NCBI GenBank assembly: GCA_044892505.1
Contig: CM097882.1
Location: 209,374,001-209,438,000, forward strand
Length of the DNA stretch: 64,000 nucleotides
From: Schmidtea nova
Taxonomy: Eukaryota
Direction of reading: 5' to 3'
Positions 21,301 through 63,637 of this stretch are shown here, in pieces. The notes under the pieces are model-generated. The model was not told the DNA's origin. It searched no databases and was given only the letters and a program-made list of their open reading frames with translations. A program made the translations under genes and the position numbers. Within the stretch, counting starts at the first letter, position 1. Each line of letters starts with the position of its first letter.

Positions 21301-21320
21301 TAGAAAAAAGATTTTAAAAA

Positions 21321-21727
21321 TATATTACGTTGCGGCATTCTAGAAATATATTACGTTGTGGTATTTTGAAATATATTACGTTGCGGTATTTAAAATATAT
21401 TATGTTGCGGTATTTTGAAATATATTACGTTGTGGTATTTAAAATATATTACGTTGCGGTATTTTGAAAAATATTACGATGCGGTATTTTGAAATATATT
21501 ACGTTGCGGTATTCTAGAAATATATTACGTTGCGGTATTTTGAAATATATTACGTTGCGGTATTTTGAAATATAATACGTTGCGGTATTTTGAAATATAT
21601 TACGTTGCGGTACTTTGAAATATATTACGTTGCGGTATTTTGAAAAATTTTACGTTGTGGTATTTTGAAATATATTACGTTTTGTATTTAAAATATATTA
21701 CGTTGCGGTATTTTGAAATATATTACG
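21321..21727. repeat. 25-bp minisatellite (ATATATTACGTTGCGGTATTTTGAA)
   Basis: About 16 tandem units; same family as 3046-3335; further short arrays at 22255-22345 and 22870-22925. Confidence 0.95.
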
Positions 21728-38912: not shown

Positions 38913-40131
38913 ATTTAATGAAAACTAATTTTAATTTAGCGATTCTTAAGTGAAAATTCTTCCTTCAAATGCCTTTCGTGGTTGATTTATTATAATTTTC
39001 ATTTTCAGTTAAATTCTAAAATAAACATTGAATTTTATTTAATAACAATTTTCTTTGTAACAATTTATTTTTTAATATAGATCATTCTCGAATATCCGCA
39101 ATGTTAATATTAATAAATTTTTATCATTTTTAAATAAATAAAATATAATTTTGAATAAATTCAAGTTTAAATATTTTTTTAAAAAGTTATAGTAATCCCT
39201 TTTTATTATGTCGTTTAATTTAAAATAACATCGAAACAATGTTTTCAATTTAAGATCTTGATATTTTTTAACCCTTTCGTTACTAGAAATGTATGCATAC
39301 GTTTTTGTTGATATGGGTCCGGTGAACGAAGAACGTATATTTTTGATTGATATTTTTAGTGAGTTAAAAGATGAAAAACATAATGATGTATCTTGCAAGT
39401 GCGTATATTAATGCAACCGAATGAATACGTTGCTATATTTTTATAATAAACAAACTTGTCAAAACCTGCAAAAGTTACTCAAAAAATACTCCGTAATGAA
39501 AGGGTTTAAAAATATTAATTGCAGTTTTTTACTTAAAACTTTGAATAATTGGTTATTTCAATACATTTTCACCATCGAGACAAAATTCGCTTATCCCGTT
39601 AACATATATATTCTGGCTTGAGGAAGCGACAAACTCTACTGATTTCTGAAGATTTTGCCAGCAAGAAAATTGTCGAAACTTTTTAAAAATGCGTAGTGTA
39701 TTGGTGAGAATTCATGTGGATGAGGCAAGGGTTTGTAGGTCAATTCTAAAAGGCTCTATTGCATTAGTTGTGTGACATGTTGCTCAGTGCTGTCATGCAG
39801 AAAGATTGGACTTTTTTTGTTAAGCAATGCTATACAAAGAAGCCTAAGTTTTTGATGGACTTCATCGATTTGTTTGGGTTGTTAAAATTAACATAAAATA
39901 AATTTGAATGGCACAAATCAATAAAAATACGAAAATTGGAAAAATAATAATTAATGTGTAAACATTAATTAAAATTTTATAAAAAATCGAAATAAAGTTT
40001 GAGAGAGGGAAACTGGTATGGGAGGATGCCAAATGATGAGATGAATTCGAATATGGGTATATAAAAATAAAAAGGGGTTCCAGAAAAAAATATTTAAAAT
40101 ATACAAATTAATTAAAATAATTAATTACTCT

Positions 40132-40878
40132 TGTTGGGTTATTATTCGGTTAAGATCGGTTTACTGACCTGACTCCTCGTGCTCTTTAATGATCGAATTC
40201 AATGAACCCAACACAGAACAATTTATTCACGATCAACACAAATTACAATTTTTGTTATACACACTTTTGATCAATTTACGCTTTCTTTTGGATTCGGATT
40301 TGACTCTTTAGTTAAAAGGATGCTTTCTCACTTTGTCTGTTCATTTCTTCAGGATCTTTCTTTATTTGTTTTCGAAACTTTTTAATATTCTCTTTTTTAA
40401 CTATCAACTCGTCGGCCCCGTCCTCTGTTTTGCGCTGCCTTTTATAGTTCTCGCAAATAGCAATTAGGTTTTATCGATACCTAAAAGTTAACCAATCTCG
40501 AGTTTAATTGTTTTGCTAACCAATTATTTTAATTATCCTCGGATAGATTTTTCCTAATTGCCCCGAATTTGATCTCTCGGGTCTCTTTGCGCTCGGGTTT
40601 TCCTCATCGCTCGGGTTTTCTATTGCCTCGGGCTTCCCATTGTCTCGGACTTCCCATTGAGCGATTAATTAATTTTAATTAGTTTGTTTTTATTAAATAA
40701 CTTTCTCTGGGGACCCCTTACTAAATTTCTATTATTATTTTTGGGTTTGTCTTTTGATTTGGCATTCAACCATACCCATTTTCCCCACTGAATATTAATT
40801 TTAAATTTTTGATAAATTTTAATTAATTTTTGCACTTTTATTTATTTTACTTTTGTGATTTTTATATTAACCCCAACA
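40132..40878 (-). mobile_element. 747-bp solo LTR, related family, opposite orientation
   Basis: TGTTGGG...CCCAACA termini, imperfect TSD CTCT/CTAT; the flanks rejoin into the host LTR. Confidence 0.8.
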
Positions 40879-42796
40879 CTATAGAAAACCCGAGCTAATA
40901 AGAAACCCGAGTTTATTGGAAACCCGAGCGATGTGGGAAACCCGGGGCGTCAACAAAACAATTAATTAAAAGAAATGGAATAATCGAAGGTTGCCTCAGG
41001 GAAAGAAGCCTCAAACCCACTTAGCAGCAACTCCAAAATTATTTTTTTAATTGACAAATCCATTAAGGTATTACAGGAACAATCGAAAAATCACTATAAA
41101 AGGCAAGTCAAAATTGCAGTACTGGCCAGAGTGGTCGAAGATAAATTTTAGGAATAAAGAGAATTTTGCAAACTAATAGAAGCGATTGGAGACAACGCTA
41201 AGAGAAAACCAAAGATAAAACTTGAATTTACTCGGTTTTCTTGCGTACCAGAAAGGGAGAAATCCCATTGGGTGTTCTACACTCACGCAGAAGAGTACAG
41301 ACACTTGTTGGGCCCGCCAAGTGGTCTAAAGAGACAAAAATAATAGGACAATTAAAACAAAAAAATAATAAAAATAATTACCTAAAACATAGAAAATCTA
41401 AATTTAAAACCAGAATTAAATAAATAAATAATAATAAATAAATTACCAGCAAGGAGAAAGATTTGAAATTTACACCAGAACAAGCAGCAGGGGGCCTGAA
41501 ACAGAAAAATTAAGAATAAAATAAAAATAAAATAAAAATAAAAGTACAATTAATTGAACAATTACATTAAAAATCAAGACCCCCCAGTAAGAAACCTGAA
41601 TCGGAAATAAAATATTATTTACAATAGAATAAAATAAAAGACAGGCTTTGATGGACGGCCTGATCCTGATTGGTCAATCTGACCAACTGGATCAGTATAA
41701 ATACCGATCCGAAAATCACTAATTTCAGCAATTTTTACAGCACCTAATTTTGAGCATTAGTTTTAAAGAATTTGTTAGAGCATTTTTCTACAGCATCTAA
41801 TTTTGAACATTTGCTTTAAAGAATTTGAATCTTAGCCTGATCATCACCAACTATTTTGTTGATTTGAATCCCTTTCGAATCGGTATGGAACAGTAAATTT
41901 TATTTTTATTGTATATGCCCATGATTTTATCATTTGTATGAATTTTAATTACATTTTTTAATTTTTTAATTTTTATTCAATTTACCACATATATTATTCA
42001 TTTATTTTCAGTATTTTATATGAATAGATATGCTTCCTCGACTGCTCACGCGGCGAGGGAGCCATAGTCGACGTCGTGGAGAATCGTAGCTTCACACGGC
42101 GGTTACACCTTTTTCTAAAGTAGGGCCATTCAGATGAAAGGGGATGTTCAATGATGTTAAATTTTAGTAATCATTATTTTTACTTTGTTGCACATAGTGA
42201 CAAGCGAGATGAACCAGGTCGAGAGGCAAAGGGTAGGTACAAGGGTTTGGTGATCATAGCAATTATTCAGTAATTAAATGACAGAATCTAAAGCTTTTAG
42301 CGCCCAAATGTTCAAATGGCGTAGAGGTTTCAGAAGGAAGTGCCCATTCTCTATTTGGGCTGATAACGATGATCGTATACTGTATCGAGGAGGCCCAGGA
42401 TAGCCGATTTCCAACCGAAATTATCCTCCAAAGTTCGGCCGATTAGTGATCATCGTAAAGGGTTCTGATGGGAGTCCCGGACAACTGGTATATTTGGGAC
42501 ACATTCCCCGAAGCGAACTCAATCAATTAGGGCTTCATGCATTTATCCCACCACGATCGTTGGGGGAAGAATACGAAACAAATCAACCAAATTTCTCGCT
42601 GGCAAGGCTACGAAAAGCAGACATCAATCAGGAGCTCCATATTATTTTTAGAAATAAACATTAGTATCGTGGAGGCTTGTATTAATAAATAAACGTTTTG
42701 TTAAATTCGAATTGTTTTTCTGGTTGATTTTCTATATGTAAACGAACATTTTAAATCTTAACTAAAGTAGAGATTTCAACTCATTAAAATTGAAGA

Positions 42797-43787: not shown

Positions 43788-46206
43788 CACTATTGCAACT
43801 TTCTGTGATTTATATTGTTGTGATATTTTTGAAAATAAAGATTCCTGTGTTGGTTCAATTTATTTTGTGAACGAAAGAACACCGGAGTCAGATACCAACC
43901 GACTTCTCATTAAAAACCCAACAGATTTCAACACAATACTTAGTCGTGATTGAGAAAGCTATAGTGTATAATGTCGGCAGTAAATTACCAAACAGTCACC
44001 TTAACCTTTCTTTGATAAAACTTTGATTTTGGAAAGTGTTTCGGTGCTTCATTCTTTTCCAACTATTGATAAAGATACCTTCTGTTATCGCAAACAATCT
44101 ATTTTCCATAACTATTTAAATCAGACATAGATATAAAAATATATTATTCTGAAGACAAATATCCAACACTCACATATAAAGTTCTTCACTGCATAACATC
44201 TAAAAAAGGACTTTAATAGTTTACTCATTATTGATACAGAAAACCTACAAACACATTTACATACCAACATTAAATTACAATAATCAAACATTATAAATAT
44301 TTTCTAATCTAGAAACAACGATTTTGACATATTATTACATAATAGGTTTATTTAATTAATTGTGCAATATCTAATTTTTCCTTACAATCGCACAGCACTT
44401 TACAATCAATAAATGGGTTTTTATTGTTATGTAATTGAAGCGCGATGCGGACCTCGTAGCGACGATTCCTTTGATTCTCGATAAATTCCTGCGGCACCTA
44501 CTTGTCAAGCTTTTTTGCCTTTCCAATTTGTTTCAAATGACAAACAATGATTAAATAACAAACACCGACTTCTTCCACTACTTCTCACGCCAATTTGAAT
44601 GGGTCTGGTTTGATAATTACCTTTAATTGGTCTACTAAAACAACAGAGGGGAAGTCGCGATCTTAATTGCCTTCAAGTTTGATTTCCCCACTTCGAAACT
44701 TTTTAAACCAATGAATGACACATATTTCAACATATTTACACAACAATTGTTACAAACTTGATTAATACTTTAAAATTTTCTTGTTTCACTATACCCTAGT
44801 TTAAATTCGTAATAATAAATTTGGCGAAAATCCGGTTTTGACATATTTTTATTAAATTAGTAAAAGTAAATAAAAAAATAATTTTAATTAAAAATGACAT
44901 CTAATCAGAATGATAATAAAATAACCTTTAAATCGATAAGTAATTTTGAGACATTTTTTAATTATCATTGAGATTTATCATAAAATTATTAATGTCAAAC
45001 TTATCTTGGCACCAACTTAATAATAAAACAATAAGTAAAACATCAATTAATGCAGATAACAGAATTTCATAATTATTAAGTAATTTAAATGTTTTGGAAT
45101 CTTTCTAGTGTGGTGACCCTTTCATGATATTTATCAAGTTGTGATGATCCCGGCGATAAATTTTGTTTTTTAGACAGAATTCGTTTTATTTCTGTTATGA
45201 TTTCATGTTCCTAATTGAAAGCTAAATGAAAAATTAAATGAAACAAAAATTTGAAAATTAAATCAAGTCGATGCAGTTCACTAGAAAAGATGGTTCACTA
45301 GTGATTGAAAAATAATCTAAAGAGAGTAACACCAAACTCAACTCTAAAACAATGATTAAATAATCATCTGTTATTGTTTTTTCAAAATTAAAAAGAAAGT
45401 TGACTTTTATTGCCAGAAGTTCGCAATGGGGTGTTGGATGAAATTACTTTACAAAATAAATAAATTATCTATCAAATCACATATATTTCACATAAATGCG
45501 AAAGTTAAAATAGTTAAAATATGAATATTTGAAACAGTTATGGGTTTAATTTTATCCATTCAAAATTCAAATTTAAATTCCATATATTTATAATATTATC
45601 AAAGTAGTGATTATTAAAACACTGATATTTTTAATATCATCTCCCCCTTTTCTAAGAATTTTTTAACCTTTTCTGCAATTTGATTCTTTTTTTCCATATA
45701 CTATTTCAAATGTTGAAAATTCCGTGAAGCTCTGTTGATTTGCGTAAATGTTGAATTCAATTCGTAGTAGTAATTCAAACAAATCTTTTCTACACAATTA
45801 TTTTTAAATGATGTTGTTTTCGTGTCTCTTGCAATTCATATTACACATTCAACTAATTCATTTGATTGATGTTGGTATGGTGATATTAATTCCTGTTTAA
45901 TGTTTAATTCTGCCATCTATTTTTCATATAATAACTTTCAAAATATTAAAGTCTATTTGTAAAAATACTGACTGGTTTACTAAATCGATATAACCAATAA
46001 TGCAGAATATGTTAAAAAATACATTGATCATTCATTTTAGATACTACAATTGGACAGTTGGACAGTTTTCTATGTCTTTCAATGATAACTACCAAATATT
46101 CTTTTAGCTTCTGCCTTATCCACATATGCAATATCTACTATGATTTGTTCAAGAAAATTTCTACTTTGTCTCAGAATCATTATTTCTTTAATTTTGCTTT
46201 GATTTA

Positions 46207-47629
46207 CAGGGTTTTTCAATTGAAATCAGATTTTTTTCAAATGAATTCAGAATATTTTCAAATGAAATCAGAATTTTTTCAAATGAATTCAGAATTTTTT
46301 CAAACGAAATCAGAACTATTTTAAACGAAATCAAATTCAAATATGTATATACAATATCCATAAAATATTAATATTTTTCAAAATTAATAACCATATGACA
46401 CCTCCAACAACAAAATCGCAATTGAGCAATGCTGCGAGAAAACTTATATGTATCAAATTTGATTCCGGCCAAAGCGTAAAAAAAATTGCTGCAGATCTCG
46501 TTATGAACTATAAAACTGTTTATAGTATTATTAACATTTACAAAACGACAGGAAGAATTGATAAAAACGAAGATAGAGGGTGCAAGTCCAAAAAATTGAG
46601 CAAAGAGCATTTAGTTTTTTTAAAAGAAAAAATTTCCGATGATTGTTCTACTCCGTTGAGATGTATGAAAAGAAGTTTGAGTGAGTCTATGAATGTTAAC
46701 GTATCGTTGGCCACAATTCATAGGTCGATCAAGGACTTTAATTTCTCTTTTAAACGAGTAGCTGCTCGCAACACTGCGGAAGCTATTGAGCGCAGGTATG
46801 AGTATGCCAATGAATATTTGGCATTAAACGAGGACCATGTCTTTTTTCTTGATGAAAGCGGTTTCAATTGCTCGATGAGATTGGGATATGGACGAAGCGA
46901 AGTAGGATCGCCTGCTCGGAAAGAAGTGAGAAGTATACGAAGTAAAAACTATTCAGTGTGCGCAGCAATCAGCAAAACGTCGATTTTGAATTTTGAAGTT
47001 GTAGAAGGTGGATACAATGCAGAGAAGTTTGAAAATTTTGTCTCTCAATTTATAGGAAATCTGCGATCGAAAGGAATATCGACAGGTACGATTATAATGG
47101 ATAATTGTACAATACATAAAAGTATTGGTGTACGCGATTTGATCAATAATTCTGGATTTACGTTACGCTTTTTACCACCCTATTCGCCGCAATTAAATCC
47201 GATTGAAGAGTGTTTCTCGAAATGGAAATCAATTGTCAAATCGGCTAATGTTCTAAATGTAATCGAGTTAAAAAACGCTATTGAAATGGGACACAATTCG
47301 ATAACCACGGAGGATTGTATCGGATTTTTCAACGACACGAGAAGGTTTGCATTAAAGGCGGTAAGAAGAGAAGAATTCTGATTAAAAGTTTTAACTACCA
47401 ATTTTTACTCAATCATGATTTCATTTAAGTGTATATAATATTTCATTAACCATTTAAATTCTGAATTCAATTAAAAAGTTCCCATATTTATTTAAGAAAT
47501 TATGATTTCGTTTAAAATAGTTCTGATTTCGTTTGAAAAAATTCTGAATTCATTTGAAAAAATTCTGATTTCATTTGAAAATATTCTGAATTCATTTGAA
47601 AAAAATCTGATTTCAATTGAAAAACCCTG
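46207..47629 (+). mobile_element. Tc1/IS630-like DD34E DNA transposon, apparently intact
   Basis: ~127-bp TIRs starting CAGGGTTTTTCAATTG with internal ~18-bp repeats; TA TSD on both sides. Confidence 0.95.
46395..47381 (+). CDS. DD34E transposase (HTH + DDE_3-type domain)
   Basis: FFLDESGF, IIMDNCTIH, LPPYSPQLNPIEE with 34 residues between D and E; uninterrupted 328 aa. Confidence 0.95.
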   Translation: MTPPTTKSQLSNAARKLICIKFDSGQSVKKIAADLVMNYKTVYSIINIYKTTGRIDKNEDRGCKSKKLSKEHLVFLKEKISDDCSTPLRCMKRSLSESMNVNVSLATIHRSIKDFNFSFKRVAARNTAEAIERRYEYANEYLALNEDHVFFLDESGFNCSMRLGYGRSEVGSPARKEVRSIRSKNYSVCAAISKTSILNFEVVEGGYNAEKFENFVSQFIGNLRSKGISTGTIIMDNCTIHKSIGVRDLINNSGFTLRFLPPYSPQLNPIEECFSKWKSIVKSANVLNVIELKNAIEMGHNSITTEDCIGFFNDTRRFALKAVRREEF

Positions 47630-48006
47630 TATATTTATTTTCGCACAGACGAGACATAGCTTTAAGTAATATTGTATAGTATTTAATATAGATGGCCAAA
47701 AATAATTGTCTTTAAGATAATTATAAACTTTCTTTGATTCAAGGTGACATAAATCTTTATTTATTCTGATCACAAATTCTTTAGCAAAATTGGATGAAAT
47801 CAAAGCTGCAAAGTTGTGTCCTTCTTCTAATACTAAAACTTCATCAATTATCTTTAACTTTTTCTGTTTTTATATACCTGACTAATTTTAGTATTGTGTC
47901 AAAGTAGTAAGATGTGTCTCCGATAACTTACTTTTGGTACTATCTTACTACTTGTCAAAAGACAGTAGCTAAAAGATTTTTATTAATAACTTTTATATTA
48001 ATAACT

Positions 48007-48132
48007 TATTAGGTTATTAATGATTAGTCGTTTGGTATCTGGCTACTTTGTTCTTTCTTTAACAACAATAAATTAAACCCAACACAATAATCTTTATTTT
48101 CAAAATTTCACTACACAAAGCAGAGAACAGTT
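48007..48132 (-). repeat. 3' part of a solo LTR split by the pPolB element
   Basis: Reverse complement matches 43792-43923; degenerate terminus TATTAGG preceded by AACT. Confidence 0.8.
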
Positions 48133-48164
48133 AGTAGGGAAAAGTGAGCGCACAGCCCCACTTT

Positions 48165-48960
48165 TTTCAACTAGCAACGGTTGCTAGGGTAAATACACAC
48201 ATCAAGATATTCCTCAATTCAGGTGTTGTCAGGGTGAACGTGCACACACATCAATATATATTACCCGATGAACCTGTTGCCAGGGTAAACACACACACAT
48301 CAAAATATTCCTCAAGACAGGTATTGCTAAGGTAAGCACACACATTACTATATAATTACCGGGGAGATGTTGCTAAGGTAAATACACACATCAAGATATT
48401 CCTCAATGCAGGTGTTGCTAGGGTAAACACACATCAATATATATTCCCCGATGAACCTGTTGCCAGGGTAAACACACACACATCAAAATATTCCTCGAGG
48501 CAGTTATTGCTAAGGTAAGCACACACATTAATATATAATTACCGGGAAGATATTGCTAGGGTAAATACGCACATTAAAGTGTAATGCATTGGAATCTGTT
48601 GCTAAGATAAACACGCGCCTATAAAGAGTCCCCAAGGAACCTGTAGTTAAGGTAAACACACGCACACATCATTATATATTCACTGAGGAACCTGTTTCCA
48701 GGGTAAACACACACACACATCAATATATATATATATATATATATATATTCATATAGCCAGATGTTGCTAAAGTTAACACACACATCAATATATAGTCCTG
48801 GGGAAGATATAGTTAAGGTAAACACACAGATCAATATATAGTCCCGGGGTAAATACACACATTAAAGTATAGTCTCCCTGTCACTATTGCTAAGGTAACC
48901 ACACATGTTAATATTTAAGTCCTGAAGTAACTATTGCTAAGATAAACACACCATTGTGTA
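48165..48960. repeat. Subterminal ~45-50-bp minisatellite of the pPolB element (mirror at ~61935-62720)
   Basis: Repeated core GCTA(A/G)GGTAAACACACACATCAA. Confidence 0.9.
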
Positions 48961-49448
48961 ACCCCCATGACTACTGTTGGTAACGTCAAAATACACAACA
49001 TATTAATTATTATCCGTACCACAAACGAAAACATGTTCTTTACTTAATTAAATGAAATTTTTGTTTGAATGTACTGGCTAACATTTTGAGTAATGGTTTT
49101 TTTAACTGATAACTTTAGAAAATCGAATGTGGCAACTATGAAAACAGATGGAATTAATTCGAGAATTGTGACAATAGTCAAAATTTTAAAGACGATTCAA
49201 CAGAGTGCAACTGCAAGAACAGATGAAATTTATTAATATTTGTAAACAAAAACAATTATTTTTACAATAAATAAAAACGAATTACACAAATCCTTAAAAT
49301 ATTACACTAATCAGGTGAAAACCCTGAACGATAAAACCAATTCAAATCTGGACAACACATAAAATTTTTAAAAACAATTAATCATAACAGTCTAAAGAAA
49401 TATAAAACTAAATATAATGAAACCAATTATTTTTTAACAAAGTTTTAT

Positions 49449-52400
49449 TCAATACAAATCTGAATTGGATATATAATTTGAATTGAGAGCTGGATCTGAA
49501 ACTGGAACACCAACCTGATCTTTTGATTGGTCTATAAACGAGCCACATCCCTTATAATGTCCGTATGCAAGACTTTCATTTTTATCAACCCAAAGTCTTT
49601 TATCATCAAGATTAGTCAAGGCAATTTTCGAATATTTATTAGTAAAGAGTTGATGATTCTTACTAACTATTCTCGACTGATCAACAGAAACTATTGAATT
49701 ATTATTATAACAATCCAGATACGACTGATGATTCAGTTTAGTATCCTTCAATGTTATACCCTTAGCCTTAATGCACTCTTCATCGCCTAAAAGACTATAA
49801 CACTTTGGTCTAAGGAATACCCACTCATCATACTTGAATCCTTTATTCTCGTCTTTGAATTTACCAATGACGGAATCTAGGTTCCTACTGTATAATGGGT
49901 GATTCGGATCATAATTAGAAGTGTCAAGTAAGTTATCTCTTATCATCGCAGGTAACAGAACATCTAACCTACAATTTCTAATCTCCAAGAAGAAAGAGTC
50001 AGTATCGCCTGCAACTATATTAATCTCACAGTTGAATTCATTACGATATTTTTGTAATTCTTCATACTGGAGTTGATACATCCTACGTTTCAACAAATCC
50101 AGTACAGTTTGACCAATGTAGCTGGGTCTATCTAAACACACAGAGTCCTTATTAAGCAAGACAGAAATTAGGTCATCGTCAATCCTATAAGTTTTTCTAA
50201 AAGTAGGTTTTGAAGTATATGTAATCAGTTTTGATGCTGAATTACATAGTCGTAAATTTAGTCGTTTCTTAAGATTTTCAACCGTTTTCCCATAAAGACT
50301 ATTATTCAAGAGTTTGTAATAGTTTTTATCTAAAGCCGTAGAAGATGCTGCTCTAAGTTCAGTGTTCGTATCAATATATTTTTTAAAGATGGGTTTCTGT
50401 TTGTACTGAACAGCCCGATGAACTCGTGTTATTTTAACACCCAAAGAAACAAAAAGCTTGAGAAGCCTCCAATGAACAACATAGTTGAACTTTGGATAAT
50501 GCGTCAGCATTAACTTCTCAACCTTTGAACCCGGAGCACACATTTTCTCTGCTGCTACCGGAAAATCATTTAATTTATCGTGAATTTCTGAAGGGATTTC
50601 AAGATCCACTTCAAAAGTCACGCCATAAGTCAAAATAGCCAAATCAGTATCCATTAATTTAATTAATTAATTTAATTTATTTTGATCTGTGATCCAACTA
50701 AATTCACCATAAGGTAATTTTTGACTTAAAGCCCACCCGTATAAATTATTTATGTCAATATATAAAAGTTCAGTCGTTTCGGAGGATACTACATGGTGCT
50801 TGTTGACAAATGTCAAACCACCACGGATCCCCCCTTCGAAAAAATTATAAATCTCCATATCCTGGAGCAATTCAATAGGTTCATCCAAGGTAATAAGCGC
50901 AGAAGCCCACGACATACCTGGAATCCCCAAGAAATTCAAAGGCTCAAGTCTATTGTGAGCTATAGATTTAGCCCTAAACTGTTGAAAGAAATCAGCAAGA
51001 AGAAAGACGTCAAGTTTTAAGTATATCATCATATAGTCACACAGAGTGTGACACTGGGATTCCCTCCAAATCACCAATGCCTTGTCATATTCGTCTTGTT
51101 TAACACCTTTCCAGATTGGTGGCAACTCATAAGTGTTGTTAAGAATTTCTAAAGATGTTGCAAAATCATAAGGAAAAATACCCTTACAGTCAACAATAGT
51201 CCCGGTGAATTCAGATCTAGTCAAAGGCAAACAAGTAAGAGTCTTAACAGCGTCATTTAAGCTAGAATTTACAAACTGACAAGAATCGATGAATTTAATT
51301 GTTAAATCGCCGACTCTTGCAGACAAAGTAAGGAATTTTTCACTCGTAGTTGGAATACATGATATTTTCCAAGTTGAAAAGTTAGCCAATCCATATTTAA
51401 GAATATGGTGCATGTCATAACCCTTTAAATTATGAAAAATAACGGGTAAAAACTTGTATAACCGACGGGATTGATTACAAGAATTACAAGCAGCTCCCAA
51501 AAATTCACCAGTGTAGTGATCATGGTCTCTGACTGGTTGTACTAAAGTTTTCCTACAAAGATAACAAATAGTAGCAGAATCAAAAGATTGTTGATTAGCC
51601 GCTGTCATAAAAAGAGGTTTCTTGTAATTAGTTCTATAAAAGGGATAAACAATAGTTTCAGAAATATCACTAATTTCAGTAAGAAAATTAGTAACGCAAT
51701 CAAGACCTAAGAAACTCTTGTAAATCTTTTCACCAGTGAAATTATTTACAAGTAAAAGACCGGCAGATATTGGGACATGTCTTTGAAAGTACTTATCATC
51801 AGCAGGTAAGATTGCCTCAAAATCGGCGTAAACAACAAAAGGTGGGGTAATTGTTTTGCTCCAATTACTAAATTGTAAATTTTTATTTCTAGGCAGAGTA
51901 TAAAGAGTTGTGCCTAATTGATTTTTAGCACACAACTGTTGATGACAATCGAATGCTTCCTGTTTTCGAAATCCATTCAAGCATCGATGACATCATATAC
52001 TTTGTACGCGAGCAACAGAAAGAGATTTATTGTCGTAATTTAAAAGCCTATCAATATCGGTAACTGCAATATAATGATATGCATCACCACTTTCCAACAA
52101 AATCAAGTTAATAGGAGTACCACCGACAACTTTTGACCTATGAATTATATCGACACAAGGGTGTTTAAAAACTTCAGGATTTGCCAAAGTATCAAGAAGA
52201 GCATCCTCATCATAAGAAAGAACGTTAATTGCAAGTCCAGGGTTTATAGCCTCAAATTTCGGAATATTACAAAGTCTCATGGGAATTAATTACATTTACT
52301 GTACAATGTTTCGCAACTAAAGATTGAGGGGTATTTATATGACCTCTACCACTCAATCGACTAATTTGGGCAAATTTAGTTAATACAAAATGAATTTCAT

Positions 52401-54112
52401 TAACTTTGTTAATAACCCAATTACTCCCTTTATCGTTAATTAATGCTATTTTTTCATTTAAAAGAGTGATACCTTCATCAAAAAAGTTATCACTCATGGG
52501 TCTCGCAGAATTTGAAATGATAAATGATTGAAATTCACCATCTTTTTCAAACTCTACATCAATGCAAAATTGTATTTTCACTGAACCCATCTCATTAATA
52601 ACATTATTTAATTTATTAATTAAAATATCAGGTAAAATTAAAGTTTTCAAAACCAAGTGAGAAACATCCATTTTTACAACAGCGTGAGATTTTCTCAAAT
52701 CAAATTTAACGTTAAGAAGAAGGGACCCACCATATTGAACATCTATGGTGTTAATGTCATTATTAAAACTTGTGTCAGAGTCGGAAAGAATATTCATATC
52801 GGACATTACCTCGTCAACTATATTACTTAATTTTCTAACTTTTGTAGGTAGTGGATTATCGATAAGGATTTTTCTTTTATTATTAATAATACTGTTATCA
52901 CTATTAATATCACTATTATTTATTGTTAAATTAAAAATCGATTTTTTCGAAGATCTAAATTTCCTTAAATGATCCTTATGGTCATCATAAAAGTTCAAAA
53001 AAGTCGAATTTTGGGTGGTCTTACATACGGGACATATAAAAAACGTGACTCCTTTATACGAATATCGGTAATATTTTCCCATTAATTCAATACATTTATT
53101 ATCATGAATTGATGATCGGCAAAATTTCGGAAAAAGTTTACCTTAAATATTAAAAAATAATTAAAAATAAATAAAAATAAATGACAAGTATTTTAATATT
53201 AAAATTAATGTCATTATACAATAATTAATTAATAATTACAATAATAAAAATTTAATTAAATAATTTAAATATTATGAAAAATAATATTAATTAATTTCAA
53301 TTATTATATTCTTAATTATATTTGTTTTAATAATAAGTTTTACTCAAAGATGTGAAATTTAAATTATTTACAAGTAATTTAAAAATATTAATTTAATATA
53401 ATAATTTTCATATAGAACACATTATTTACTATGATAGAAAATAAATTATTTATTAATAATTAATTTACAAAAACTTTAATTACTAAAACATTATTAAAAA
53501 AATAAATAAATAAATAAATAAATAAATAAAACAATAAGTAATAATAATCAATATTCAAATTAATTTTATATTCAAATTAATTAATTAATTATTATAAAAA
53601 ATTAGAATAATTATAATTAAAACTAGAATTGTTTTAATAATTAGTTATAAAATAAAAATTCAAATTCAAAAATTGTGAATAATTTTCAAAAATTAGTAAA
53701 CACTACAAAACTAATTAAAAAAAATAATTATTAATTTAAATAATATAGTTAATTATTTTAAGTTTTCATTAGTATTTATTAACTTATCAATGATAAATAT
53801 TACAAATCTCTTTGAATAATAAATAAAGATTATCCGTTAAATTACAAAATTGATAAAGAAAACTAATTATTAAATAATTTAAATTAATATTTATATACAA
53901 AGGTAATTAATTATAAATTGCAATCATTAAATAAATCGATATTTACAGTTATTTTCTTTTCTCTTTTCATCGTTAAGTTTATTTTTCATTAAACTATCCA
54001 TTGTTTCAGATGATTCAACATTTTTACCAATAACGTTGTTCATATTGTTGTCGACATCGTTGTTGTAATCGTTGTTCTTGGTAATATCCATATTATTGTT
54101 GGTATTGTTCAT
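49449..54112 (-). pseudogene. Protein-primed DNA polymerase B, left arm (2 in-frame stops + 128-bp deletion)
   Basis: ORFs 52267-53082, 51993-52280, 50667-51980, 49449-50654 plus upstream exon 53927-54112; lacks the bases equivalent to 58491-58618. Confidence 0.9.
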
Positions 54113-55350
54113 TTTATCTAAAATAAGTTGATTATTTAAAAACTTTAAAACAAAAATAACTTACCAAATTTAGGTTGCAGTAAAAAGTGATTCTTAAATG
54201 AAAAACTATTGTTTATATACTAAATTCAAAAATTTTTAACCAATCAAATTCGAGCAAACATACACACACGTTTGTAAATACCACAGTGTAATTTATTTTT
54301 ACAATAAATTTTTTTTTTTTTTTAAATTATTAAACACATAATTTATTGTTATAAATATATGTCATCAATTAATGTTAAATATAAATTATTATTAAAATAC
54401 AATGTAATAAATTAAGATTAATTTTAAAATTAAATTATACTAATAAATTATAAAAATTATTACAAGTAATTAAAATTAAATAAAAAAAAAATTAATTATT
54501 AGATAAATTGTAAATTAATTGAAATAAAAATTAATTAATTGAAATAAAAATTAATTAATTAAAATAAAAATTAATTAATTAAAAGTAAACTAATTATTCA
54601 CAAAGTTATTAGTTTTTACATAATGTATTACTGTAAAGAATTAGAATATAAATTGTTACAGTGAAAACACAATTAAAGTATCAAATAAAATCAATTATTT
54701 ACAACAAAACCCATATGTAACACGATAATTTGTAAATTTCTAATCAAACAATTTAGTGGAAAATTTATACATATAATGAAAACTCTAAAAAATTATTTTA
54801 AAATTACAAAAATAACAAGAAAAAATGTGTGCAACATGAAAAATGACTAATTTTATATTTTTATTTAAACCATTTTATAGGAAATTAAATTCTACATATA
54901 CACTGTTAATGTGAAAACTCATTATCTTTATTACAACATCAAAGAAAACCAATTAATAACAACAAAACGCGTGTGCAGCTCGCAAATCACAACATTTTGA
55001 ATTTTCAAGTTGGCCATCTTGTAGAGAATAAAATTCTGTCTATACATTGTTACAGCGAGAAAAACGAATAATTTCAATTTGAGGCATAAATAAATAAAAA
55101 AGAAAAATTTTAAATGTTGATAGTAGAGTAGGGGGAGCGCCCAAAAACAGGAACAGACCCCCTCCCCCCCTAAAAAATTTTTTTTACCCCCCCCCCCCGC
55201 AAAAAAAAATTGTTTAAATGAAGTGGATTTTTTAAATTTTTTATTTTGTTTAAATTAAGTGAATTTTTAATTTTTAATTTAGTTTAAATGAAGTGAATTT
55301 TTTAATTTTAATTTTTTGTTTAAATGAAGTCAATTTAATTTTATTATTTT

Positions 55351-55587
55351 NNNNNNNNNNNNNNNNNNNNNNNNNNNNNNNNNNNNNNNNNNNNNNNNNN
55401 NNNNNNNNNNNNNNNNNNNNNNNNNNNNNNNNNNNNNNNNNNNNNNNNNNNNNNNNNNNNNNNNNNNNNNNNNNNNNNNNNNNNNNNNNNNNNNNNNNNN
55501 NNNNNNNNNNNNNNNNNNNNNNNNNNNNNNNNNNNNNNNNNNNNNNNNNNNNNNNNNNNNNNNNNNNNNNNNNNNNNNNNNNNNNNN
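55351..55587. other. Assembly gap (237 N)
   Basis: N run at the centre of the palindrome; true size unknown. Confidence 1.
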
Positions 55588-56529
55588 TATTTTAATTTAT
55601 TTGTTTTTTTCGGGGGGGGGGTCTCTTCCTGTTCTTGGGCGCTCCCCCTACTCTACTATCAACATTTAAAATTTTTCTTTTTTCTTTATTTATGCCTCAA
55701 ATTGAAATTATTCGTTTTTCTCGCTGTAACAATGTATAGACAGAAATTTATTCTCTACAAGATGGCCAAAATGAAAATTTTAAATGTTGTGTTTTGCGCG
55801 CTACACACATGTTTTGTTGTTATTAATTGGTTTTCTTTAATGTTGTAATAAAGATAATGAGTTTTCACATTAACAGTGTATATGTAGAATTTAATTTCCT
55901 ATAAAATGGTTTAAATAAAAATATAAAATTAGTCATTTTTCATGTTGCACACATTTTTTCTTGTTATTTTTGTAATTTTAAAATAATTTTTTAGAGTTTT
56001 CATTATATGTATAAATTTTCCACTAAATTGTTTGATTAGAAATTTACAAATTATCGTGTTACATATGGGTTTTGTTGTAAATAATTGATTTTATTTGATA
56101 CTTTAATTGTGTTTTCACTGTAACAATTTATATTCTAATTCTTTACAGTAATACATTATGTAAAAACTAATAACTTTGTGAATAATTAGTTTACTTTTAA
56201 TTAATTAATTTTTATTTTAATTAATTAATTTTTATTTCAATTAATTAATTTTTATTTCAATTAATTTACAATTTATCTAATAATTAATTTTTTTTTTATT
56301 TAATTTTAATTACTTGTAATAATTTTTATAATTTATTAGTATAATTTAATTTTAAAATTAATCTTAATTTATTACATTGTATTTTAATAATAATTTATAT
56401 TTAACATTAATTGATGACATATATTTATAACAATAAATTATGTGTTTAATAATTTAAAAAAAAAAAAAAAAATTTATTGTAAAAATAAATTACACTGTGG
56501 TATTTACAAACGTGTGTGTATGTTTGCTC

Positions 56530-56590
56530 GAATTTGATTGGTTAAAAATTTTTGAATTTAGTATATAAACAATAGTTTTTCATTTAAGAA
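56530..56590 (+). promoter_or_regulatory. Putative Pol II promoter of pPolB
   Basis: GATTGG (inverted CCAAT), TATATAAA about 25 nt downstream, then TTTTCATTT Inr-like; mirrored in the left arm. Confidence 0.55.
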
Positions 56591-56668
56591 TCACTTTTTA
56601 CTGCAACCTAAATTTGGTAAGTTATTTTTGTTTTAAAGTTTTTAAATAATCAACTTATTTTAGATAAA

Positions 56669-59600
56669 ATGAACAATACCAACAATAATATGGATATTAC
56701 CAAGAACAACGATTACAACAACGATGTCGACAACAATATGAACAACGTTATTGGTAACAATGTTGAATCATCTGAAACAATGGATAGTTTAATGAAAAAT
56801 AAACTTAACGATGAAAAGAGAAAAGAAAATAACTGTAAGTATCGATTTATTTAATGATTGCAATTTATAATTAATTACCTTTGTATATAAATATTAATTT
56901 AAATTATTTAATAATTAGTTTTCTTTATCAATTTTGTAATTTAACGGGTAATCTTTATTTATTATTCAAAGAGATTTGTAATATTTATCATTGATAAGTT
57001 AATAAATACTAATGAAAACTTAAAATAATTAACTATATTATTTAAATTAATAATTATTTTTTTTAATTAGTTTTGTAGTGTTTACTAATTTTTGAAAATT
57101 ATTCACAATTTTTGAATTTGAATTTTTATTTTATAACTAATTATTAAAACAATTCTAGTTTTAATTATAATTATTCTAATTTTTTATAATAATTAATTAA
57201 TTAATTTGAATATAAAATTAATTTGAATATTGATTATTATTACTTATTGTTTTATTTATTTATTTATTTATTTTTTTAATAATGTTTTAGTAATTAAAGT
57301 TTTTGTAAATTAATTATTAATAAATAATTTATTTTCTATCATAGTAAATAATGTGTTCTATATGAAAATTATTATATTAAATTAATATTTTTAAATTACT
57401 TGTAAATAATTTAAATTTCACATCTTTGAGTAAAACTTATTATTAAAACAAATATAATTAAGAATATAATAATTGAAATTAATTAATATTATTTTTCATA
57501 ATATTTAAATTATTTAATTAAATTTTTATTATTGTAATTATTAATTAATTATTGTATAATGACATTAATTTTAATATTAAAATACTTGTCATTTATTTTA
57601 ATTTATTTTTAATTATTTTTTAATATTTAAGGTAAACTTTTTCCGAAATTTTGCCGATCATCAATTCATGATAATAAATGTATTGAATTAATGGGAAAAT
57701 ATTACCGATATTCGTATAAAGGAGTCACGTTTTTTATATGTCCCGTATGTAAGACCACCCAAAATTCGACTTTTTTGAACTTTTATGATGACCATAAGGA
57801 TCATTTAAGGAAATTTAGATCTTCGAAAAAATCGATTTTTAATTTAACAATAAATAATAGTGATATTAATAGTGATAACAGTATTATTAATAATAAAAGA
57901 AAAATCCTTATCGATAATCCACTACCTACAAAAGTTAGAAAATTAAGTAATATAGTTGACGAGGTAATGTCTGATATGAATATTCTTTCCGACTCTGACA
58001 CAAGTTTTAATAATGACATTAACACCATAGATGTTCAATATGGTGGGTCCCTTCTTCTTAACGTTAAATTTGATTTGAGAAAATCTCACGCTGTTGTAAA
58101 AATGGATGTTTCTCACTTGGTTTTGAAAACTTTAATTTTACCTGATATTTTAATTAATAAATTAAATAATGTTATTAATGAGATGGGTTCAGTGAAAATA
58201 CAATTTTGTATTGATGTAGAGTTTGAAAAAGATGGTGAATTTCAATCATTTATCATTTCAAATTCTGCGAGACCCATGAGTGATAACTTTTTTGATGAAG
58301 GTATCACTCTTTTAAATGAAAAAATAGCATTAATTAACGATAAAGGGAGTAATTGGGTTATTAACAAAGTTAATGAAATTCATTTTGTATTAACTAAATT
58401 TGCCCAAATTAGTCGATTGAGTGGTAGAGGTCATATAAATACCCCTCAATCTTTAGTTGCGAAACATTGTACAGTAAATGTAATTAATTCCGATGATTTA
58501 TGTTTCATTTATAGTATTTTAGCTATTTTGAAATATGATGAGGTAACTGATCGTAATAATAGAAATAGAGCAAATAATTATAATATTTCTGATCTTGACT
58601 TTGACCCTTCAGAAATGCCCATGAGACTTTGTAATATTCCGAAATTTGAGGCTATAAACCCTGGACTTGCAATTAACGATCTTTCTTATGATGAGGATGC
58701 TCTTCTTGATACTTTGGCAAATCCTGAAGTTTTTAAACACCCTTGTGTCGATATAATTCATAGGTCAAAAGTTGTCGGTGGTACTCCTATTAACTTGATT
58801 TTGTTGGAAAGTGGTGATGCATATCATTATATTGCAGTTGCCGATATTGATAGGCTTTTAAATTACGACAATAAATCTCTTTCTGTTGCTCGCGTACAAA
58901 GTATATGATGTCATCGATGCTTGAATGGATTTCGAAAACAGGAAGCATTCGATTGTCATCAACAGTTGTGTGCTAAAAATCAATTAGGCACAACTCTTTA
59001 TACTCTGCCTAGAAATAAAAATTTACAATTTAGTAATTGGGGCAAAACAATTACCCCACCTTTTGTTGTTTACGCCGATTTTGAGGCAATCTTACCTGCT
59101 GATGATAAGTACTTTCAAAGACATGTCCCAATATCTGCCGGTCTTTTACTTGTAAATAATTTCACTGGTGAAAAGATTTACAAGAGTTTCTTAGGTCTTG
59201 ATTGCGTTACTAATTTTCTTACTGAAATTAGTGATATTTCTGAAACTATTGTTTATCCCTTTTATAGAACTAATTACAAGAAACCTCTTTTTATGACAGC
59301 GGCTAATCAACAATCTTTTGATTCTGCTACTATTTGTTATCTTTGTAGGAAAACTTTAGTACAACCAGTCAGAGACCATGATCACTACACTGGTGAATTT
59401 TTGGGAGCTGCTTGTAATTCTTGTAATCAATCCCGTCGGTTATACAAGTTTTTACCCGTTATTTTTCATAATTTAAAGGGTTATGACATGCACCATATTC
59501 TTAAATATGGATTGGCTAACTTTTCAACTTGGAAAATATCATGTATTCCAACTACGAGTGAAAAATTCCTTACTTTGTCTGCAAGAGTCGGCGATTTAAC

Positions 59601-61452
59601 AATTAAATTCATCGATTCTTGTCAGTTTGTAAATTCTAGCTTAAATGACGCTGTTAAGACTCTTACTTGTTTGCCTTTGACTAGATCTGAATTCACCGGG
59701 ACTATTGTTGACTGTAAGGGTATTTTTCCTTATGATTTTGCAACATCTTTAGAAATTCTTAACAACACTTATGAGTTGCCACCAATCTGGAAAGGTGTTA
59801 AACAAGACGAATATGACAAGGCATTGGTGATTTGGAGGGAATCCCAGTGTCACACTCTGTGTGACTATATGATGATATACTTAAAACTTGACGTCTTTCT
59901 TCTTGCTGATTTCTTTCAACAGTTTAGGGCTAAATCTATAGCTCACAATAGACTTGAGCCTTTGAATTTCTTGGGGATTCCAGGTATGTCGTGGGCTTCT
60001 GCGCTTATTACCTTGGATGAACCTATTGAATTGCTCCAGGATATGGAGATTTATAATTTTTTCGAAGGGGGGATCCGTGGTGGTTTGACATTTGTCAACA
60101 AGCACCATGTAGTATCCTCCGAAACGACTGAACTTTTATATATTGACATAAATAATTTATACGGGTGGGCTTTAAGTCAAAAATTACCTTATGGTGAATT
60201 TAGTTGGATCACAGATCAAAATAAATTAAATTAATTAATTAAATTAATGGATACTGATTTGGCTATTTTGACTTATGGCGTGACTTTTGAAGTGGATCTT
60301 GAAATCCCTTCAGAAATTCACGATAAATTAAATGATTTTCCGGTAGCAGCAGAGAAAATGTGTGCTCCGGGTTCAAAGGTTGAGAAGTTAATGCTGACGC
60401 ATTATCCAAAGTTCAACTATGTTGTTCATTGGAGGCTTCTCAAGCTTTTTGTTTCTTTGGGTGTTAAAATAACACGAGTTCATCGGGCTGTTCAGTACAA
60501 ACAGAAACCCATCTTTAAAAAATATATTGATACGAACACTGAACTTAGAGCAGCATCTTCTACGGCTTTAGATAAAAACTATTACAAACTCTTGAATAAT
60601 AGTCTTTATGGGAAAACGGTTGAAAATCTTAAGAAACGACTAAATTTACGACTATGTAATTCAGCATCAAAACTGATTACATATACTTCAAAACCTACTT
60701 TTAGAAAAACTTATAGGATTGACGATGACCTAATTTCTGTCTTGCTTAATAAGGACTCTGTGTGTTTAGATAGACCCAGATACATTGGTCAAACTGTACT
60801 GGATTTGTCGAAACTTAGGATGTATCAACTCCAGTATGAAGAATTACAAAAATATCGTAATGAATTCAACTGTGAGATTAATATAGTTGCATGCGATACT
60901 GACTCTTTCTTCTTGGAGATTAGAAATTGTAGGTTAGATGTTCTGTTACCTGCGATGATAAGAGATAACTTACTTGACACTTCTAATTATGATCCGAATC
61001 ACCCATTATACAGTAGGAACCTAGATTCCGTCATTGGTAAATTCAAAGACGAGAATAAAGGATTCATGTATGATGAGTGGGTATTCCTTAGACCAAAGTG
61101 TTATAGTCTTTTAGGCGATGAAGAGTGCATTAAGGCTAAGGGTATAACATTGAAGGATACTAAACTGAATCATCAGTCGTATCTGGATTGTTATAATAAT
61201 AATTCAATAGTTTCTGTTGATCAGTCGAGAATAGTTAGTAAGAATCATCAACTCTTTACTAATAAATATTCGAAAATTGCCTTGACTAATCTTGATGATA
61301 AAAGACTTTGGGTTGATAAAAATGAAAGTCTTGCATACGGACATTATAAGGGATGTGGCTCGTTTATAGACCAATCAAAAGATCAGGTTGGTGTTCCAGT
61401 TTCAGATCCAGCTCTCAATTCAAATTATATATCCAATTCAGATTTGTATTGA
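56669..61452 (+). pseudogene. Protein-primed DNA polymerase B (Polinton-type, EndoVII-like + exonuclease + polymerase), putatively spliced; in-frame stops at 58906-08 and 60232-34
   Basis: CYLC...VRDHDHYTGEFLGAACNSCN, VIFHNLKGYD, YIDINNLYGWA, KLLNNSLYGK, DTDS, KCY; three ORFs all in frame 1; candidate intron 56835-57631. Confidence 0.92.
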
Positions 61453-62764
61453 ATAAAACTTTGTTAAAAAATAATTGGTTTCATTATATTTAGTTTTATA
61501 TTTCTTTAGACTGTTATGATTAATTGTTTTTAAAAATTTTATGTGTTGTCCAGATTTGAATTGGTTTTATCGTTCAGGGTTTTCACCTGATTAGTGTAAT
61601 ATTTTAAGGATTTGTGTAATTCGTTTTTATTTATTGTAAAAATAATTGTTTTTGTTTACAAATATTAATAAATTTCATCTGTTCTTGCAGTTGCACTCTG
61701 TTGAATCGTCTTTAAAATTTTGACTATTGTCACAATTCTCGAATTAATTCCATCTGTTTTCATAGTTGCCACATTCGATTTTCTAAAGTTATCAGTTAAA
61801 AAAACAATTACTCAAAATGTTAGCCAGTACATTCAAACAAAAATTTCATTTAATTAAGTAAAGAACATGTTTTCGTTTGTGGTACGGATAATAATTAATA
61901 TGTTGTGTATTTTGACGTTACCAACAGTAGTCATGGGGGTTACACAATGGTGTGTTTATCTTAGCAATAGTTACTTCAGGACTTAAATATTAACATGTGT
62001 GGTTACCTTAGCAATAGTGACAGGGAGACTATACTTTAATGTGTGTATTTACCCCGGGACTATATATTGATCTGTGTGTTTACCTTAACTATATCTTCCC
62101 CAGGACTATATATTGATGTGTGTGTGTTAACTTTAGCAACATCTGGCTATATGAATATATATATATATATATATTGATGTGTGTGTGTGTTTACCCTGGA
62201 AACAGGTTCCTCAGTGAATATATAATGATGTGTGTGTGTTTACCTTAACTACAGGTTCCTTGGGGACTCTTTATACGCGCGTGTTTATCTTAGCAACAGA
62301 TTCCAATGCACTACACTTTAATGTGCGTATTTACCCTAGCAATATCTTCCCGGTAATTATATATTAATGTGTGTGCTTACCTTAGCAATAACTGCCTCGA
62401 GGAATATTTTGATGTGTGTGTGTTTACCCTGGCAACAGGTTCATCGGGGAATATATATTGATGTGTGTTTACCCTAGCAACACCTGCATTGAGGAATATC
62501 TTGATGTGTGTATTTACCTTAGCAACATCTCCCCGGTAATTATATAGTAATGTGTGTGCTTACCTTAGCAATACCTGTCTCGAGGAATATTTTGATGTGT
62601 GTGTGTTTACCCTGGCAACAGGTTCATCGGGGAATATATATATTGATGTGTGTGCACGTTCACCCTGACCACACCTGAATTGAGGAATATCTTGATGTGT
62701 GTATTTACCCTAGCAACCGTTGCTAGTTGAAAAAAGTGGGGCTGTGCGCTCACTTTCCCCTACT

Positions 62765-63281
62765 AACTGTTCTCTGCACTCTTGCGTTAGGGTAGGTGTC
62801 CCAATGGGAAATCTCCTTTTCTGATAAGCAAGAAAATCGTGTAATTCTGGATTCTAACCTTTAGCTCTCTCTTTCAGGTTTTTTGATTGCCGCTTCTGTT
62901 TTTTCACGACAAAGTTTGGTCCCGCAAAACTGGCGATATCAACAATTTGCTCTCAGTTTATATATTGACTTTCCCTTTCATCCTATCTCCTTAATTTAAT
63001 CTGTCAAAACAAAATAATAACATTTTTTGTCGTTAAATAACTTAATTTGAAGAAATTGGGTTTTCCACCGGGTTTAACTTATTTTGGGCTAATTGGTTTT
63101 TTGACTTTTCCCGGAGAATCCTTTAACCATTCAATTCTCTTGAATAATCTAATAATTTTGTTGATGCCCCGGGTTTCCCATTAACATGTGCTTCCCATTA
63201 GCTTGGGTTCTCTAATTAACTAATAAATTATTTATTAATTTTTAATTAATTTTTATTTATCGAATATATTTTTCTGGGGAC

Positions 63282-63346
<65 letters not shown>

Positions 63347-63544
63347 CCATATTTGAATTCGTCTCATCACTTGGCATCTTCCCATGCCAGCTTTCTTCGT
63401 TAAATCTTTATTTTGGATTTTTATAGATTTTATTTATTTTTGTACTTTCATTATTACTTTCGAATTTTGTAACTTTTAATTAATTTGCACTAAGTTTTTG
63501 TGCTAATTCATTTTATTTCCATGTTTGTTTACACAACCACAACA
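62765..63544 (-). repeat. 5' part of the solo LTR split by the pPolB element
   Basis: Reverse complement matches 39871-40131 plus 40879-41305; ends CCACAACA followed by AACT; contains a (TA)n run at ~63287-63345. Confidence 0.85.
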
Positions 63545-63637
63545 AACTTGTATTTGTTATTTATTTGTTAATTAATTAATTAATATTATTTATTTATTTT
63601 TATTTATTTATTTATCATTTTAATGATTATTTATTTA

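Follow-up and report, generated by a model that had tools for sequence, protein, structure and literature searches.

A palindromic, polymerase-only element derived from a Polinton in Schmidtea nova, possibly formed by chromosomal fold-back of a dead copy

What could leave two copies of one Polinton polymerase gene reading outward from the centre of a ~14.7-kb palindrome? The question is raised by a locus of the planarian Schmidtea nova, in a window of 64,000 nucleotides (assembly GCA_044892505.1, contig CM097882.1, positions 209,374,001 to 209,438,000 of the forward strand; all coordinates below are those of the window). Each arm of the palindrome carries a broken copy of the gene for protein-primed DNA polymerase B (pPolB), and both copies hold the same two in-frame stops. 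Our favoured reading, to which we give a probability of roughly 0.4, is a one-off chromosomal fold-back: in a Polinton that was already dead, the pPolB end would have been duplicated, replacing the core and the other end. The weights of this and the other explanations are judgements and were not computed.

Self-BLAST bore out the ~14.6-kb palindrome of the first-pass annotation, giving a total of 14,658 bp in which inverted arms of ~99% identity flank a 438-bp centre. Positions 48120-52287 were inverted relative to 62777-58614 (99.3% identity), as were 52277-55177 relative to 58496-55605 (98.8%), and the GC skew was mirror-symmetric about the element centre. From the outside inward, each arm consisted of an array of ~46-bp repeats, an outward-reading pPolB and ~2 kb of AT-rich DNA. 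The parts of the element are as follows.

48120..55170, minus strand: left arm, an inverted copy of the right arm, 7,051 bp (self-BLAST and arm alignment)
55609..62777, plus strand: right arm, 7,169 bp (self-BLAST and arm alignment)
55171..55608, unstranded: centre of 438 bp, with C-runs, a T-rich 36-bp tandem repeat (55210-55336), 237 N (55351-55587) and a short T-rich stub
49449..53142, minus strand: left pPolB pseudogene, with in-frame stops at 51993-51995 and 50667-50669 and a 128-bp deletion
57631..61452, plus strand: right pPolB pseudogene, a single 1,273-codon frame interrupted by in-frame stops at 58906-58908 and 60232-60234
48180..48960, unstranded: left subterminal array of ~46-bp repeats with a 183-bp higher order (TRF and self-BLAST)
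61950..62777, unstranded: right outer end with its subterminal repeat array (self-BLAST and TRF)
48120..48140, plus strand: left outer end, nine mirrored bases followed by a putative AGT-type terminus-like motif, AGTTAGTAGGG

The two pPolB copies, previously called head-to-head and Polinton-type, both read outward, and matched PF03175 (E 1e-19 and 5e-9) and PF02945 in Pfam. The right copy was laid out as a terminal protein (TP)-like region, a viral OTU domain (vOTU), an exonuclease (Exo) region with an EndoVII/HNH domain, and polymerase (Pol) motifs A, B and C. Motifs Exo I-III and Pol A-C aligned with those of relatives, as expected of a Polinton pPolB, although the stops break both arms. The Cys and His motifs of the vOTU were intact in the right arm. 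In the left arm the 128-bp deletion, near 52281, caused a frameshift and the loss of codons 287-330, including the Cys motif of the vOTU; this deletion, already noticed in the first reading of the sequence, was confirmed and is flanked by 2 bp of microhomology. Both in-frame stops are common to the two arms, which indicates that the template of the duplication was already broken. An alternative genetic code was not adopted as the explanation of these stops, on two grounds: the pPolB frame and a neighbouring Tc1 open reading frame (ORF) end in TGA as expected, and the two stop columns hold a residue in 52 of 58 and in 58 of 58 relatives.

The N-terminal 405 residues were modelled with a mean pLDDT of 81.8. 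In this model, residues 131-237 resembled the little finger of Y-family polymerases (4IR1, Z 7.7, root-mean-square deviation 2.4, 90 residues aligned) and residues 252-388 resembled many OTU domains, with Z up to 6.9; a Foldseek search of the N-terminal model against the PDB gave nothing at E 0.001. A TP-like domain followed by a vOTU is therefore predicted N-terminal to Exo from repeated matches in the expected order, at middling Z values. The same TP-vOTU order and the comparison with 4IR1 are given for Polinton pPolBs in PMC11161782. By the combination of OTU and PF03175 used in PMC8502044, the gene would be classed as Alpha-type.

Differences between the arms were then considered. Up to 55167, the arms differed by 36 substitutions and seven indels, none of them of 1 bp; six of the indels, each of 2-8 bp, were slips by whole units in microsatellites or T-runs, and the seventh was the 128-bp deletion. 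The WSKT/WGKT and AGDTD/ACDTD differences reported earlier were both seen in the comparison. Eight of the 10 coding substitutions changed the residue, against a neutral expectation of 79%. When arm differences were polarised on the 30 closest relatives, four were clearly derived in the right arm, two in the left arm, and two were unclear; in addition to the 128-bp deletion, the left arm had an altered predicted splice donor. Both arms thus appear to be individual lineages, neither of them a consensus. Divergence was layered, with 6 differences in 841 bp (0.71%) in the outer zone, 15 in 5,974 bp (0.25%) in the middle and 15 in 233 bp (6.4%) in the inner zone. The zone boundaries were picked after viewing the data, and on them the excess over the middle gave p 0.037 for the outer and p 2e-14 for the inner zone. 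Conversion within the array was discarded as the source of the outer excess, as just one of the six substitutions has its context elsewhere in the array. The shared stops, the private lesions of each arm and the layered divergence were all absent from the first-pass annotation. By their sequences, the arms go back to a single copy that was broken beforehand, and they have drifted apart since, as physical copies or as alleles. The inner zone is the following feature.

54935..55167, unstranded: inner zone of raised divergence, in which 15 of 233 bp differ, 11 of them within the 99 bp at 54935-55033

We also looked for the genes expected in a Polinton core. When 362 ORFs of 27 related loci were compared with the window by tblastn, 95 of the 98 high-scoring segment pairs (HSPs) lay within the pPolB frames; the remaining three were outside the element. 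No integrase was matched by tblastn or Pfam within the element, the 237-N gap being unseen, and in the search for packaging ATPase, protease and major and minor capsid proteins the core ORFs of three related loci (L005, L006 and L018) had no HSP in the element. Outside pPolB, none of the 12 frames of the right arm had a Pfam match, and the longest open frame there has 86 codons. No direct repeat of 6-8 bp was present within ~18 bp of the outer junctions, the symmetric matches being 2-mers only. The earlier statements that integrase and capsid genes and a 6-bp target-site duplication (TSD) are missing therefore stand, and packaging ATPase and protease genes were likewise not found outside the gap. 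Finally, the inverted repeats of ~7.1 kb contrast with the 100-1,000 bp expected of Polinton terminal inverted repeats (TIRs). Because integrase, capsid genes and TSD are missing and the TIRs are of the wrong length, the element is by its sequence Polinton-derived and not an intact Polinton.

The original TIR may correspond to the repeat zone of ~0.85-1 kb, and the left subterminal array at 48180..48960 is probably part of it. At the left outer end, the candidate true termini are AGAG at 48122 and AGT at 48129. Polinton end motifs (AGT)2 and (AG)3 are given in PMC8097293; AGAGAA at 48122 and AGTTAGTAG at 48129 come near these, and neither is exact. With the terminus at 48129, nine flanking bases are mirrored, and homology to the flanking long terminal repeat (LTR) reaches five bases into them. 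The outer 211 nt folded as DNA no better than shuffles (z -0.72), and an Rfam scan of the whole window gave 0 matches.

The sequences outside the arms belong to the following features.

48004..48007, unstranded: left copy of an AACT TSD, at the LTR end fixed by homology
63545..63548, unstranded: right copy of the AACT TSD, at the LTR end fixed by homology
48008..48119, minus strand: 3' part of the LTR, with AATAAA and then a decayed end; 82% identical to 43816-43921
62778..63544, minus strand: 5' part of the LTR, beginning TGTTGTGG, with a TATA box and a 60-bp TA run; it aligns with LTR copies at 39869-40117 and 40893-41301 and with the 5' part of a solo LTR

These flanks had been described as complementary halves of one LTR bounded by AACT. 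The AACT copies at both ends and the layout of the flanks fit that description, and because of them the flanks are likely to be one LTR, split by the element. The LTR ends were fixed by other copies of the family, and the chance of a 4-bp AACT match was ~0.008. The features of a Gypsy-like solo LTR were found (TG...CA ends, a TSD within the 4-6-bp range and a U3-R-U5 layout), with the 3' end decayed: family copies end in CCCAACA, and the left flank is decayed at the homologous position. The distance from TATA to AATAAA was ~208 bp in the split LTR and 219 bp in the solo copy. Against the description, no uninterrupted LTR copy crosses the junction anywhere in the window, and the left flank aligned with the complete solo LTR below shuffles (48 vs 58); it is linked to the family through the copy at 43816-43921 alone (82%, E 6e-23), which in turn matched the solo LTR (40132-40877) at its 3' end (59 vs a shuffle maximum of 35). 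As separate observations, a 15-bp tandem duplication at 47977-48007 ends with the left AACT, and an LTR of the same family at 39871-41305 is broken by a solo LTR (40132-40877), complete and oppositely oriented. At that 39871-41305 copy, homology to the right flank stops exactly at the Polinton junction.

The only run of N in the window, 55351-55587, lies in the element centre. Past a C/A run common to both sides, the left contig enters the T-rich 36-bp repeat. The 24-nt stub to the right of the gap is T-rich too, on the same strand as the left repeat, which it matched at 17 of 18 positions with a score of 29, against 16 when mirrored; 0.6% of 3,814 real AT-rich decoys scored as well. Such a same-strand match is predicted by a single asymmetric spacer and favours, weakly to moderately, one short spacer of this kind. 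Close to the centre, a candidate terminus was also seen.

55122..55134, plus strand: terminus-like motif AGTAGAGTAGGGG, facing the centre and mirrored at 55645-55657

Its 8-mer AGTAGGGG occurs in the window at 55127, 55645 and 62757 only. The alignment of this inner motif with the outer end was borderline (5% of shuffles equalled it), and the motif is a post hoc lead.

Relatives of the polymerase were sought as well. The closest proteins, nearly all unnamed, were 50-62% identical over the middle segment; a second protein search yielded relatives of up to 70-73% identity over the C-terminal segment, without informative names. The window pPolB fell inside a supported clade of close relatives in a quick tree (60 of 62 rows; SH-aLRT support only), and the look-alikes in the atlas were mostly arthropod clusters. 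A GTDB scan gave 27 loci, nearly all 25-38% identical, with one short segment at 57%; none of the eight placed in the tree fell inside the close clade, and two more were left out as too short. The pPolB was palindromic in none of these 27 loci with readable context, most of which are too short to show a palindrome. An rve integrase stood beside pPolB in 9 of 13 scanned loci, L005 carried an ATPase, a double jelly-roll (DJR) capsid protein, a PLA2-like protein and a weak protease match, and in both L005 and L006 pPolB was the last gene and pointed outward, as it does here. The relatives with readable context (30-37% identity) are ordinary Polintons. Among 87 listed members of the close clade (18 of 20 clusters and proteins of at least 1,000 residues; two distant clusters and shorter members were excluded), the longest contig was ≤7.5 kb in 66, 7.5-10.5 kb in none and >10.5 kb in 21, the last being spread over 8 of the 18 clusters; these samples are not independent, and the sizes are an indirect clue. 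Contig sizes of ~5.7, 6.05, 6.7, 7.2-7.3 and 11.3-12.6 kb recur in the clusters P0002, P0008 and P0011, which suggests defined break points or ends. Three further observations concern single loci. L006, a Polinton-like contig in a bacterial metagenome-assembled genome bin, has a TBP-like ORF at 1862-2350 (PF00352, E 3e-10) by its integrase and ATPase. In L010, a block of pPolB C-terminal and integrase sequence occurs twice in direct orientation at 10646-17927 with identical ORF lengths, and in L014 a 1,494-codon ORF without Pfam match (9719-14200) lies downstream of a 1,586-codon pPolB.

How might these features have arisen together? On the reading that we favour, an ordinary Polinton would have inserted into an old solo LTR, decayed and gained the two pPolB stops. 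A break or a stalled fork inside the dead copy would then have been repaired through a fold-back, seeded by a short and imperfect inverted repeat ~7 kb from the pPolB end; promoter, pPolB and TIR would have been copied back out to the end, probably together with a few flanking bases. Rejoining of the copied arm to the other LTR half would have removed the integrase and capsid core together with the original other end and its TSD, and the arms, now inert, would have drifted neutrally afterwards. Fold-back from a broken template accounts for the stops shared by both arms, and the greater divergence of the inner 233 bp is as expected of an older seed repeat. The mirrored LTR-like bases outside the AGT-type motif, the missing TSD and the missing core would all be explained by a chromosomal event of this kind. 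Palindromic duplications seeded by short inverted repeats are reported from yeast (PMC4689423), and 10 loci of Caenorhabditis elegans are described as pPolB-end Polinton remnants without integrase (10.1101/2024.01.15.575659).

Several points weigh against this reading. The gap lies in the centre, and the anatomy is known here from the assembly alone; no remnant of the former core was found in the element. The stub match covers just 18 nt, with p 0.075 against composition shuffles, and the mismatches of the inner zone, crowded into 99 bp of it, could be poor sequence at a contig end. Greater divergence in the outer repeat zone than in the middle is not predicted by full copy-through, and would follow if the strand had annealed into the old left TIR. 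In the flanks, the LTR copy at 40893-41301 tracks the right flank to the junction and does not go on from there into the left flank (score 39, shuffle maximum 49), and a Gypsy integrase adjoins the LTR on the left, with no continuation detected on the right.

The most serious rival, which we consider unlikely, is an assembly or haplotype artefact, in which a normal TIR-pPolB-core-TIR Polinton lost its core because the left contig was extended into pPolB through an allele or a paralogue. The gap sits at the centre, and 14.7 kb is close to the 15-20 kb of Polintons (PMC4196379); two alleles of a single dead copy would be expected to share stops and to differ neutrally by 0.25%, the outer excess is what TIR-against-TIR beside allele-against-allele comparison predicts, and the relatives are ordinary Polintons with rve in most scanned loci and no palindrome. 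When this explanation was first raised, the layered divergence was not yet part of it, and the outer zone does fit. The same-strand spacer and the private lesions of both arms argue against the artefact. Past the C/A run the contigs diverge, and the stub right of the gap agrees with the left-hand repeat in the same-strand reading. Two extensions that stopped locally so as to leave just 237 N would be a coincidence, assuming that the gap size was estimated, and the 55-kb contig before the gap runs unbroken over young repeats, so that its reads were probably longer than a TIR of 1 kb. A normal copy should also retain its 6-bp TSD. There are no 1-bp indels, and the 128-bp deletion has its 2-bp microhomology, as is often the case for deletions in vivo. 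Since the outer flanks are different LTR halves bounded by AACT, a simple fold-back read or amplification chimera, which would not give such flanks, was rejected, and two independent inverted insertions are disfavoured on the same ground. Taken together, our weights make it quite probable that both arms are physically real.

The other explanations take the palindrome as real and give it a different origin. On another reading, distinctly unlikely in our judgement, the locus would be a fossil replicon, protein-primed, palindromic and with no gene but the polymerase, either a copy-back Polinton genome or a member of a capsid-less family with pPolB inside 6-7-kb inverted arms; this idea would match the recurring 5.7-7.3-kb contigs of the closest relatives. 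In the improbable copy-back (snap-back) form, pPolB would have switched template ~7 kb in during protein-primed replication and copied the nascent strand back; the resulting palindrome would have been replicated by the polymerase of a helper and captured at a break without integrase. Retention of both ends and origins with loss of everything else, as well as the lack of a TSD, would follow, and the shared stops would be tolerated under the relaxed selection that comes with a polymerase provided in trans; yet the mirrored LTR-like bases at the left junction are left unexplained, a single copy was seen, and defective genomes are usually much shorter than their parent. The first-pass annotation had offered a dimeric replication intermediate or a new long-TIR element; the shared stops fit an active element poorly, and a chromosomal fold-back duplication accounts for them more simply. 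Membership in a family of capsid-less and integrase-less palindromic pPolB replicons, of which the locus would be a dead integrated copy, is doubtful. The well-supported clade of closest relatives at 50-62% identity, the bimodal contig sizes, with several clusters repeating 5.7-7.3 kb, near the length of one arm, and the terminus-like motif at the inner end speak for it, but those sizes are indirect and the samples not independent, short-read assemblers usually collapse perfect palindromes, so that contigs >10.5 kb more likely hold unique core genes, and none of the 27 readable loci, most of them too short to reveal one, is a palindrome. Least probable of all is a real Polinton whose ~7-kb TIRs include pPolB and whose core genes lie in an under-sized gap. 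The gap size is an unverified figure, and the inward-facing terminus-like motifs that bound the centre loosely recall the internal TIRs of Teratorn, which lie at the edge of long inverted repeats (PMC6431247). The T-rich repeat that flanks the gap left and right suggests a short array instead, the TSD is missing, inactivating stops are common to both copies, and described Polinton TIRs measure 100-1,000 bp (PMC4196379).

The element was also compared with known systems. With Polintons/Mavericks (adintoviruses with an Alpha-type PolB, OTU plus PF03175), the element shares the TP-like, vOTU, Exo and palm domains, subterminal tandem repeats and a terminal outward pPolB as in L005 and L006; it differs in having pPolB doubled in 7-kb arms and in lacking integrase, ATPase, protease, capsid genes and a 6-bp TSD. 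phi29 and adenovirus form palindromic end-duplicated replicons, in which one protein-primed end is inverted and duplicated as it is here, but these are extrachromosomal and short, whereas the element is chromosomal and 14.7 kb long. The bidnavirus pPolB segment and eukaryotic linear plasmids are, like one arm, units of ~6-7 kb around a TP-fused pPolB; unlike them, the arm has no capsid or RNA polymerase genes and no inverted ends of its own. The vOTU of bidnavirids is given as inactivated in PMC11161782, whereas the right arm keeps its Cys and His motifs. Short parasitic replicons of phi29 are described in PMC11494085, the available part of which never mentions palindromes. An HNH/EndoVII-like domain within pPolB is shared with the pPolB2 Polintons of nematodes and oomycetes (10.1101/2023.08.22.554363), this domain being the one likeness seen; the tree had no named references, and PF03175 with PF02945 is also common in arthropod clusters. 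The C. elegans remnants (10.1101/2024.01.15.575659) consist, as here, of TIR and pPolB without integrase, and Polinton-linked inversions occur there; those cases are single remnants and inversions of host genes, whereas the present element is a mirror pair of pPolB arms.

A mirror-image pPolB layout of a Polinton was not described in the literature searched, as far as its available text goes; subscription journals, Repbase and supplements lay outside the search. If both arms are real, the locus represents a Polinton architecture not met in that literature. If it arose as a chromosomal accident, Polintons can seed long palindromes, which yield hairpin RNA and instability. A copy-back genome or a palindromic family, if true, would bear on the mode of Polinton replication, for which an untested racket model has been put forward (PMC4196379), and a replicon fossil would document directly, in a genome, the hairpin or panhandle intermediates that Polintons have long been proposed to form. 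If the palindrome is an artefact, it calls for caution in annotating transposable elements at gaps.

Upstream of the right pPolB, a promoter and introns were predicted from sequence motifs.

56535..57631, plus strand: predicted Pol II promoter (CCAAT, TATA) and introns upstream of pPolB
56617-56663, plus strand: predicted intron of 47 nt
56669-56834, plus strand: predicted short N-rich exon
56835-57631, plus strand: predicted intron in phase with the pPolB frame

Unlike this upstream-exon model, two close relatives begin at a Met equivalent to 57691. Introns upstream of pPolB would also set the element apart from intact vertebrate Mavericks, given as intronless in the available part of PMC8097293.

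The rest of the window holds further repeats. A decayed Burro-like Gypsy element occupies 6181-20350, with a RING ORF, gag, a mononegavirus-type fusion protein, protease, ankyrins and ORFs without Pfam matches; in its part at 8176-20350 the gene order is gag, mononegavirus-type env, protease and ankyrins. No reverse transcriptase or integrase ORF of this element was found among the long frames scanned. Planarian Burro elements are described with env between gag and pol and with ankyrins (PMC6431247), so that the window's own sequence points, without settling it, to a dugesiid planarian. Planarian Polintons are reported as targets of PIWI-interacting RNAs (PMC8532177). A young Tc1-like transposon at 46202-47634, with an intact frame of 364 codons and TIRs 98.5% identical, sits inside the Gypsy integrase that adjoins the LTR. 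The 427-codon ORF at 24712-25995 has no significant Pfam match and is reminiscent of the endonuclease region at the C-terminus of a non-LTR retrotransposon; a mariner/Tc-like fragment follows it at 26162-26722. An ORF of 246 codons at 38172-38912, with a hydrophobic C-terminus and no Pfam match, is possibly a host exon. Arrays of 25-bp repeats occur at 3030-3336 and 21318-23908, and three blocks at 20842-23908 are 84-85% identical. At 3030-3336, two arrays stand head-to-head and form a small palindrome.

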